DNA of 14,939 nt from a phage: sequence record PX306536.1; one strand, written 5' to 3'. The notes under the pieces are model-generated. The model ran no database searches, was not told where the DNA came from, and saw nothing but the letters and a program-made list of their open reading frames with translations. A program made the position numbers and the translations under genes. Shown piece by piece: positions 1 through 14,939 of this stretch (positions within the stretch are counted from its first letter, which is position 1; each line of letters begins with the position of its first letter).

Positions 1-110
1 GGGGATACGTGCCCCTCCCCACCTACCCGCGCCCCTAACATTTTTATTTCCGTCTGTCAATACCCCCTGCATCCGATAGGCCCGAACTATCACAAACGGA
101 AAAGCGATAG
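1..110. repeat. Left inverted terminal repeat (110 bp), genome terminus starting GGGG
   Basis: Positions 1-110 are the exact reverse complement of 14830-14939; the match breaks at position 111 versus 14829. C-rich tracts and repeated GATAG/CTATC motifs lie inside. Confidence 0.95.
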
Positions 111-143: not shown

Positions 144-173
144 TTGTAAGCGCGTTTAAAATCATGGTAAAAT
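144..173 (+). promoter_or_regulatory. Candidate sigma70-like early promoter for the left early operon (VIII-I)
   Basis: TTGTAA (144-149), 18-nt spacer, TAAAAT (168-173), about 60 nt upstream of the gene VIII ATG at 233. Sequence inspection only. Confidence 0.35.
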
Positions 174-12999: not shown

Positions 13000-13349
13000 T
13001 GGGAAATGATGAATGGTGGAAGTATCTAATTTTTCCGCTAGTGGCTACGCTTGGCGGAATTGTCAATTACTCAAAAAGGGCGCTTGCCATGAAACGCTTT
13101 TCTAAACTTGAATTTGCGGTTGAAGCGGTAAGCGCCGCGTTTGTGGGCTTGATGGTAACGCTAGGCGGGGCGGCTATGGATTTATCGCCGCACTGGCTAG
13201 GCATGGCGGCGGGAATGTCTGGATGGATGGGCGCGGATTTTGTCAAGGCGGTTTTCTCGCAATTTGTGCAAAGCAAGATTGGCCCTATCAATCAGCCGGG
13301 GCCGATAGATTCCGACAATGACAAGCCGGGGCGAACCTTCAATGATTAA
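12996..13349 (+). CDS. XXXV: Holin P35, 117 aa
   Basis: Multiple hydrophobic helices with a charged C-terminus, located directly upstream of a spanin pair; ATGTCATGATG overlap with the VII stop. Confidence 0.8.
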   Translation: MMGNDEWWKYLIFPLVATLGGIVNYSKRALAMKRFSKLEFAVEAVSAAFVGLMVTLGGAAMDLSPHWLGMAAGMSGWMGADFVKAVFSQFVQSKIGPINQPGPIDSDNDKPGRTFND

Positions 13350-14768: not shown

Positions 14769-14796
14769 ATTATACGCGCATTTTTAGGACGTGCAA
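14769..14796 (-). promoter_or_regulatory. Sigma70-like early promoter for the right early operon (XII-XIX)
   Basis: On the minus strand: TTGCAC (14791-14796), 16-nt spacer, consensus TATAAT (14769-14774), AT-rich upstream; about 70 nt upstream of the XII ATG. Confidence 0.6.
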
Positions 14797-14829
14797 TAGT
14801 TATGACGAAAATAAATCAAAATTTTATTC

Positions 14830-14939
14830 CTATCGCTTTTCCGTTTGTGATAGTTCGGGCCTATCGGATGCAGGGGGTATTGACAGACGGAAATAAAAAT
14901 GTTAGGGGCGCGGGTAGGTGGGGAGGGGCACGTATCCCC
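14830..14939. repeat. Right inverted terminal repeat (110 bp), genome terminus ending CCCC
   Basis: Exact reverse complement of positions 1-110. Confidence 0.95.

Follow-up and report, generated by a model that had tools for sequence, protein, structure and literature searches.

Conserved pentamers at the inner edge of the PRD1-type inverted terminal repeat resemble an OxyR-type operator

The subject of this report is a short element in the inverted terminal repeats (ITRs) of the DNA in sequence record PX306536.1, which at 14,939 bp is the complete genome of a PRD1-like alphatectivirus and is referred to here, in its whole length, as the window. Over its full length, the window is 97.9% identical to Burkholderia phage vB_Bco-CSP1 (CSP1) and 97.5% identical to PRD1, and its first 230 bases do not differ from those of PRD1. 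Three pentamers, GATAG, CTATC and GATAG, stand at the inner edge of the left ITR with spacers of 7 and 14 nucleotides (nt) and are mirrored at the right end, exactly as an earlier reading of the letters by themselves (the sequence-only reading) had described them. Both the words and their spacing are conserved among the relatives of PRD1, and the first two pentamers contain a perfect ATAG-N7-CTAT, the motif recognised by the host regulator OxyR. The pentamers are most likely duplex half-sites for a sequence-specific, oligomeric DNA-binding protein and lie outside the 20-bp minimal origin of replication. That the element would be a duplex binding site for a host LysR-type, OxyR-like regulator is a reading to which we give tentative preference, with somewhat less than even confidence.

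The element is not a new kind of thing, as the ITR block that contains it was already known to be conserved. What is new is that the newer, divergent ITR variants appear to narrow the constraint mainly to the pentamers and their spacing, that the layout seems to match LysR-type, and specifically OxyR-type, operators in their extended form, and that the genome has an internal third copy of the module. These last two points had been overlooked in the sequence-only reading.

Conservation of the words and their spacing

When eight full-length left ends are aligned (the window, PR5, CSP1, PR772, PR4, RH-42-1, L17 and PR3), the variation is confined to the middle (19-75), and positions 1-18 and 76-110 are the same in all of them. 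That the first 18 and the last 35 bp of the ITRs of these phages are conserved was reportedly described by Savilahti and Bamford in Gene in 1986. The 35-bp block at 76-110 holds the pentamers, except that the first G of site 1 (position 75) is just outside it, and it is identical among the classical PRD1 isolates, spacers included. Because the whole block is invariant there, the classical comparison is unable to separate the pentamers from the spacers. A literature search found no published function for this inner block, and the pentamers are nowhere mentioned in what it returned.

Our sample covered 20 complete relatives at both ends (classical isolates, newer isolates of the PRD and PKJ series, CSP1 and RH-42-1), PRDcerulean, PRDmagenta and BCE1 at one end each and the ends of three IMG/VR contigs. 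The search for extra ITR diversity yielded three contigs from IMG/VR, searched with the terminal protein and P12, and one from a metagenome scan. Conservation was tested on the eight related haplotypes of positions 75-110 in this sample. The spacer lengths of 7 and 14 nt are constant in all of them, with no insertion or deletion. Variable columns make up 2 of the 15 pentamer positions versus 10 of the 21 spacer positions (Fisher p=0.04), and the minimum number of substitutions is 3 in the pentamers versus 14 in the spacers. The bases found at position 75 are G, A and C; at position 90 T is the rule, and A, which gives CTAAC, is found at one end only (right end of L17 and PR3, left end of PKJ.Vi.20.1). 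The 7-nt spacer occurs as gcccgaa, gcgggaa, gcggtaa and acaattc, and the 14-nt spacer as acaaacggaaaagc, aaaagaggaaaagg, acaaagggaaaagc and acaacgggaaaagg. For example, the left end of IMGVR_UViG_3300020613_000018 has six of the seven bases of the first spacer altered and both flanking pentamers intact.

These haplotypes bear on the possibility that the pentamers have no function of their own, i.e., that the inner 35 bp are conserved as a block (as upstream promoter DNA, through pairing of the ends or by shared recent ancestry) and that the pentamers occur in it by chance. We consider this rather unlikely. The invariance of 76-110 in the eight left ends (PR3, PR4, PR5, PR772 and L17 among them) is what it would predict, the block GGAAAAG and other spacer bases are invariant too, and the contrast between pentamers and spacers (p=0.04) rests on eight related haplotypes only. 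The invariance of GGAAAAG means that there are constrained bases beyond the pentamers, and both this and the small number of haplotypes have to be added to the points gathered below against an OxyR-like site. However, the divergent haplotypes change up to six of seven bases in one spacer and four of 14 in the other, and the pentamers and spacing stay.

Genomes with unlike ends provide a second argument against a block without motif function. The inner ITRs of PRDaquamarine, PRDwine and IMGVR_UViG_3300020613_000018 differ between the two ends, and the pentamers are present at both; PRDpeacock also has unlike ends and pentamers at both, except that site 1 at its right end reads CATAG. Because such genomes keep the pentamers at both ends, the conservation is not due to homogenisation of the two ends.

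Non-identical inner ITRs are common in natural alphatectivirus genomes. PRDaquamarine and PRDwine combine a PRD1-type left end with a divergent right end and PRDpeacock has the opposite arrangement; the two ends also differ in PRDemerald and IMGVR_UViG_3300020613_000018, and in L17 and PR3 the difference is a single base (CTATC versus CTAAC). Phages with unlike ends are said to have been viable in an older report, and the non-identical natural ends agree with this. They suggest that ITR types recombine frequently with each other.

Some database records have to be read with care. Among the PKJ records, the right end carries a Nextera-like adapter in PKJ.Vi.20.1 and a run of poly-G in PKJ.Vi.20.4, and the ends (first and last ~100 nt) of PKJ.Sj.20.1 and PKJ.Vi.20.3 carry scattered substitutions. 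Because PKJ ends carry such errors, the deviating pentamers (GATCG and CCATC) of two PKJ assemblies were excluded, which is a judgement and not a proof. About half of the PRD* records are without an ITR and begin at window position 111.

The sequence-only reading had proposed that conservation across tectivirus ITRs would be a check on the motifs. They are conserved within Alphatectivirus, but nothing similar is found in Gluconobacter phage GC1, whose 326-bp ITR has no motif of the GATAG/CTATC type. The GC1 ITR has an internal direct repeat of its own, 17 nt long, GTAATTCGTGTCACACT and GTATCTAGCGTCACACT, with the copies 21 nt apart (GC1 121-158). Short repeats within ITRs, with genus-specific sequences, may thus be a general tectivirus feature. 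The same reading had placed the last pentamer exactly at the ITR boundary, which is correct for the window but is not a general rule: in PRDobsidian and PRDsepia the two ends are identical for 6 nt further and read GATAGgaataa past site 3.

Taken from one sequence, the pattern would not be very surprising. In 8.3% of dinucleotide shuffles and in 21% of genome windows, a 110-nt stretch has some 5-mer or its reverse complement at least three times in 36 nt, and the alternating order of word, reverse complement and word occurs in 1.3% and 4%, respectively. The single-sequence evidence is therefore weak to moderate, and a 1-4% event, with any 5-mer allowed, is compatible with a chance arrangement of the pentamers. 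Genome-wide there are 29 copies of GATAG/CTATC versus 13.2 expected from dinucleotide shuffles, or about twice as many; by hand arithmetic, 29 is about the expectation under uniform base composition, and the excess is relative to dinucleotide content only. GATAG as a genome-wide signal was rejected, as isolated copies are invariant in 7 of 22 cases versus a background of 32%; that isolated sites are not conserved also agrees with an absence of motif function.

The sequence-only reading had suggested a small hairpin as one possible role. GATAG and CTATC are complementary, so that sites 1 and 2, or alternatively sites 2 and 3, could pair within one strand, and the hairpin, in a displaced strand or a cruciform, would then be the functional unit. 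Protein-primed replication does produce displaced single strands, and the left end of IMGVR_UViG_3300020613_000018 indicates that the loop between sites 1 and 2 is fully replaceable with the stem kept. However, the two stems have predicted DNA free energies of -0.9 and -0.1 kcal/mol, and folds of 70-115 or 1-125, on either strand, are no better than those of shuffled sequences (z -0.9 to 0.0). No compensating change accompanies those found in the stem (G75 to A or C, T90 to A). In addition, the displaced strand is coated by P12, and the internal copy described below would form an unstable hairpin with a 5-bp stem and a 14-nt loop. The hairpin is consequently a very improbable explanation.

Likeness to OxyR-type operators and a third copy in the holin gene

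The sequence GATAG-N7-CTATC formed by sites 1 and 2 is a 17-bp dyad with the core ATAG-N7-CTAT, and OxyR recognises 5'-ATAG-n7-CTAT-3' (PMC5002191), a form that the P. aeruginosa OxyR sites share (PMC3378865). In the oxyR-oxyS control region there are dyads at -66, -44 and -35; uninduced OxyR uses IR1 and IR3 (-66 and -35), which are 31 bp apart, and the dyads used by the oxidised form are 22 bp apart (PMC5002191). From the start of the first ATAG of the ITR to that of the third is 31 bp, or three helical turns, which is the dyad spacing of uninduced OxyR, and at the oxidised-form spacing of +22 the ITR has no second dyad. The dyad at 76-90 is kept in haplotypes H1, H2, H4 and H7; at one of the two ends of L17, PR3 and PKJ.Vi.20.1 its right half is weakened to CTAA. 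OxyR specificity is alike in Escherichia coli and Pseudomonas aeruginosa, both of which host these phages (PMC3378865).

When the genome is scanned with the four-element pattern ATAG-N7-CTAT-N16-ATAG-N7-CTAT, the top three positions are 76, 14819 and 13274, with 14, 14 and 13 matches out of 16, respectively. The next best match has 11, and shuffled genomes contain a mean of 0.055 matches of at least 13. Two of these positions are the ITRs. The other is a module at the 3' end of the holin gene, where CTATC and GATAG are separated by the same 14 nt as in the ITR and flanked by partial outer half-sites. By a hand estimate from the motif counts, ~0.01-0.02 such pairs would be expected at this exact spacing. 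The pentamers of the internal module are kept in 21 of the 21 genomes compared and in three IMG/VR contigs, and its 14-nt spacer varies at ~11 positions, as do the encoded residues. Four synonymous third-codon positions within the internal pentamers, one of them in a rare ATA codon, are invariant, compared with ~52-57% of third positions overall. The holin site has two dyads 31 bp apart, which read AAAG-N7-CTAT and ATAG-N7-CAAT in PRDobsidian and PRDaquamarine. The internal pair is a further argument against the absence of a motif function.

A matrix was built independently from 19 published P. aeruginosa OxyR sites obtained by chromatin immunoprecipitation (ChIP). Of the ~15,000 positions of the genome, the four that score highest with it are 13305, 13278, 76 and 14850, all above the training median and the first two within the holin module; the dyad at 76-90, third-best in the genome, scores 11.98 versus a median of 11.3. 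At least three independent matches as strong as these were obtained in 12 of 2000 block shuffles and in 6 of 1000 dinucleotide shuffles, and two matches within 35 nt in 0 of 2000 and 2 of 1000. This enrichment over shuffles is also difficult to reconcile with pentamers that are there by chance. The ATAG-N7-CTAT core, the 31-bp spacing and the third copy of the module make OxyR the most specific candidate for the binding protein. The consensus sequences of IHF, Fis, CRP, DnaA, Fur and LexA were compared by eye, informally, and none fitted.

Several observations weigh against an OxyR-like site. A single matrix match as strong as that of the ITR occurs somewhere in 15 kb in 89 of 300 shuffles and is not significant. 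The ITR dyad scores solely through its ATAG/CTAT core, as the G+C-rich centre GCCCGAA adds 0.12 bits, whereas the centres of the internal dyads add 1.6-1.8 bits. The consensus of the P. aeruginosa ChIP sites, ATAGATTNAATCTAT, is an extremely A+T-rich motif (PMC3378865), and the ITR dyad does not have the A+T-rich centre of this consensus. In the second ITR dyad, at +31, ATAG (107-110) supplies an invariant left half, but the right half has two of four matches at both ends. The first dyad is centred at 83, ~60 bp upstream of the -35 hexamers, and so the dyad and the half-dyad would be at ~-97 and ~-66 and not at the canonical -66 and -35, i.e., ~30 bp further upstream. Because about ten regulators were informally considered first, the OxyR p-values need a correction of that order. 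Coding constraint (Pro-Ile ... Ile-Asp/Glu) may explain part of the conservation of the internal module. Two further points concern the replication proteins and the left promoter and are given in the next section.

A phage regulatory region bound by a host OxyR would not be without precedent. The mom promoter of phage Mu is bound by host OxyR irrespective of its oxidation state. Binding there depends on Dam methylation of GATC, in which it differs from the PRD1 element, which has no GATC.

Table 1. Coordinates of the features discussed (window positions unless a contig is named)
Feature	Position	Strand	Remarks
Site 1, GATAG	75-79	+	conserved core ATAG at 76-79; first base G, A or C in relatives
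Site 2, CTATC	87-91	+	inverted copy; sole variant CTAAC
Site 3, GATAG	106-110	+	last 5 bp of the ITR; invariant at all ends judged reliable
Mirror copies of the three pentamers	14830-14865 (14861-14865, 14849-14853, 14830-14834)	-	in the right ITR
15-bp dyad ATAG-N7-CTAT (T-N11-A type)	76-90	.	reads ATAGGCCCGAACTAT; matches the OxyR/LysR-type recognition dyad
Internal module	13274-13319	.	3' end of the holin gene; CTATC 13285-13289, N14, GATAG 13304-13308; outer half-sites cAAG ... CaAT
Left ITR	1-110	+	100% complementary to 14830-14939; same as the PRD1 ITR; ITR in the M22161 annotation
Right ITR	14830-14939	-	perfect partner of 1-110; ITR in the M30146 annotation
Minimal replication origin	1-20	+	from the literature; pentamers outside; 1-18 invariant in 8 full-length ITRs
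Left early promoter	144-173	+	TTGTAA, 18 nt, TAAAAT; 33 nt inward of site 3; M22161 gives 111-232 as promoter region
Right early promoter	14769-14796	-	TTGCAC, 16 nt, TATAAT; M30146 annotation, 145-172 from the right end
GGAAAAG	98-104	+	invariant block within the 14-nt spacer; separate from the pentamer motif
Longer inverted repeat, TTTCCGTCTGT (47-57) / ACAAACGGAAA (92-102)	47-102	.	11 nt, 91% complementary; surrounds sites 1 and 2
Tandem 38-bp arrays (IMG/VR)	L062 6313-6424; L106 177-250; L057 2407-2480; L071 5897-5970; L101 14356-14429

Origin, early promoters and candidate binding proteins

PMC4150772, with reference to Yoo and Ito (1991), gives the terminal 20 bp as the minimal origin of PRD1. 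The element is in the ITR, internal to this origin, and is conserved while 19-75 varies, as would be expected of an auxiliary part of the origin. Full-length ITRs are 110 or 111 bp, and the distance of the element to the terminus is constant within 1 nt. On the inner side of the element are the early promoters, and the -35 hexamers of both are at 144-149 from their own genome end, in the same register. Around these hexamers, 131-150 and 14790-14809 are identical at 13 of 20 positions (65%) in the same register, outside the perfect ITR. It would thus seem that the ITR repeat extends, although degenerate, through both promoters, which is again in line with a block that is conserved without a motif function.

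PRDpeacock, PRDchartreuse, PRDobsidian and PRDsepia (and, by BLAST, PRDcanary and PRDpistachio) have a different left non-coding region, and left ends of the PRDpeacock type carry a better promoter, TTTACA ... TATAAT. There are 16-18 nt fewer between site 3 and the -35 hexamer in these left ends. Because the distance to the terminus is constant within 1 nt and the distance to the promoter is 16-18 nt shorter, the position of the element is tied to the terminus more than to the left promoter. A strictly phased activator is thus disfavoured, which is one of the two remaining points against OxyR.

The other comes from replication. According to the literature, the terminal protein and the polymerase suffice to maintain linear replicons with 110-bp ITRs in three hosts, E. 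coli, P. putida and V. natriegens. Because these replicons need nothing else from the phage, a role of the element in replication would have to be accessory or to go through a ubiquitous host factor. We found no dissection of the 110-bp ITR in a literature search; the systems known as EcORep and PRIME use the whole ITR.

The sequence-only reading had proposed protein-binding sites, with P12, P19 or host factors as the proteins. The conservation of the words and spacing within the genus supports such sites indirectly, but P12 and P19 are unlikely. P12 binds single-stranded DNA without sequence preference and double-stranded DNA weakly (PMC11886824), and the ITR replicons manage without P12 and P19. 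As the layout matches OxyR-type operators, the binding protein would more probably be a host factor than either of these two.

A site for some phage protein, nevertheless, has to be considered, either a second place at which P19 or the complex of terminal protein and polymerase docks (an auxiliary origin) or a signal for the packaging vertex (P9/P6); the internal copy would then be an extra. The evidence from conservation and geometry applies to this equally well, and the better kept distance to the terminus than to the left promoter would fit. The origins of adenovirus and phi29 are stimulated by proteins that bind double-stranded DNA near the ends (PMC4150772). Packaging of PRD1 requires the terminal protein, and the phage has no known DNA packaging signal (PMC4267777). 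However, a phage-encoded sequence-specific binder was not found, as P8, P12, P19, P6, P10, P17 and P33 have no sequence-specific double-stranded DNA-binding Pfam domain above threshold. The terminal protein P8 (233-1009) has a sub-threshold match to the winged-helix family WHD_MCM8 at residues 135-165 (E=0.0066, 16.9 bits, cut-off 26), which would slightly favour a phage protein. The terminal 20 bp suffice as minimal origin, and a signal that is present at both ends cannot set the polarity of packaging. With the properties of P12 and of the ITR replicons also against it, a site for a phage protein seems unlikely to us.

For the preferred reading, an OxyR-like site, the following mechanism can be proposed. 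An oligomeric protein would occupy the inner part of both ITRs, on the stretch that separates the minimal origin from the early promoters. If it is the OxyR tetramer of the host, its contacts would be with one strong dyad and a weaker half-dyad, and it would bend the ITR DNA. The bound protein may then play an accessory part in early transcription, in the initiation of protein-primed replication or in both. A comparable accessory role is that of the NFI and Oct-1 sites in the adenovirus ITR. Adenovirus (NFI, Oct-1/NFIII) and phi29 (p6) share with PRD1 a protein-primed linear genome and a short terminal core origin, and proteins that bind double-stranded DNA further in stimulate their initiation (PMC4150772). 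The adenovirus ITR is also similar in length, and its middle is likewise variable between a conserved terminus and a conserved inner part. They differ from PRD1 in that no such factor is known for PRD1, whose replicons need the terminal protein and polymerase only, and there is no sequence similarity.

Related patterns elsewhere and implications

Some other repeats are found near the pentamers. The longer inverted repeat listed in Table 1 occurs in PRD1-, L17- and PRDpeacock-type ITRs and is lost in the 'tagccgcg' variants; because a whole group of ITR variants is without it, it was rejected as the feature that matters in place of the pentamers. A 14-nt direct repeat, CGATAGGCCCGAAC (74-87) and CGATAGCCCAAAAC (105-118), has copies that are 79% identical and 31 nt apart; it extends 8 nt beyond the ITR boundary, at the left end only. 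The block GTCAATA(C/G)CCCC at 57-67 is present in all of the ITR variants seen and reads AATAG in most relatives and AATAC in the window. This AATAG, 16 nt ahead of site 1, is possibly a fourth, weaker copy of the pentamer word.

An exact scan of IMG/VR for the three pentamers gave 120 matches, mostly at chance level. In three unrelated contigs (L036, L042 and L094) there are two perfect GATAG-N7-CTATC dyads 31 bp apart, with 0.12 such cases expected among 120. Three further IMG/VR families have tandem 38-bp arrays of a one-and-a-half-dyad unit, GATAG-N7-CTATC-N14-GATAG-N2. In L062 the array is next to a gene for a terminase and in L101 next to one for a primase-polymerase, and the neighbours in L057 have no family match. 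A common neighbouring gene for the arrays and double dyads was looked for and rejected, as the neighbours are mixed (terminase, primase-polymerase, RusA). Possibly the arrays and double dyads are operators or iterons of a widespread binding protein. Their recurrence points to the geometry as a recurring protein-binding layout and is not informative on whose it would be.

Mimicry of an operator of the conjugative plasmid that the phage needs was also considered. Many of the isolates were obtained on the IncP-1 plasmid pKJK5. The first 50 kb of pKJK5 contain no GATAG-N7-CTATC, CTATC-N14-GATAG, ATAG-N7-CTAT or CTAT-N16-ATAG, and with no copy of the pattern in that part of the plasmid such mimicry is unsupported.

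A more far-reaching proposal is that, in this lytic phage of broad host range, each ITR and the lysis cassette have a docking site for a host LysR-type tetramer (reduced, extended OxyR) and that the phage reads the redox state of the host through these three sites. We regard this as doubtful. If it is true, the redox state of the host would act at the genome ends to tune early transcription and protein-primed initiation and perhaps also the timing of lysis, and it would be the first time that a host factor is assigned to a tectivirus ITR.

In conclusion, PRD1 is the model tectivirus, and its ITRs are the origins of orthogonal replication systems for continuous evolution, EcORep and PRIME, which carry the whole 110-bp ITR, bases 21-110 included. 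If the inner ITR is a docking site, it would provide a handle for tuning the copy number or the host dependence of such replicons, and it would give a reason for the invariance of the block in isolates from several continents. If it is not, the inner ITR can probably be shortened. In the former case, the protein that docks there would possibly be the first host factor that acts at the end of a tectivirus genome.

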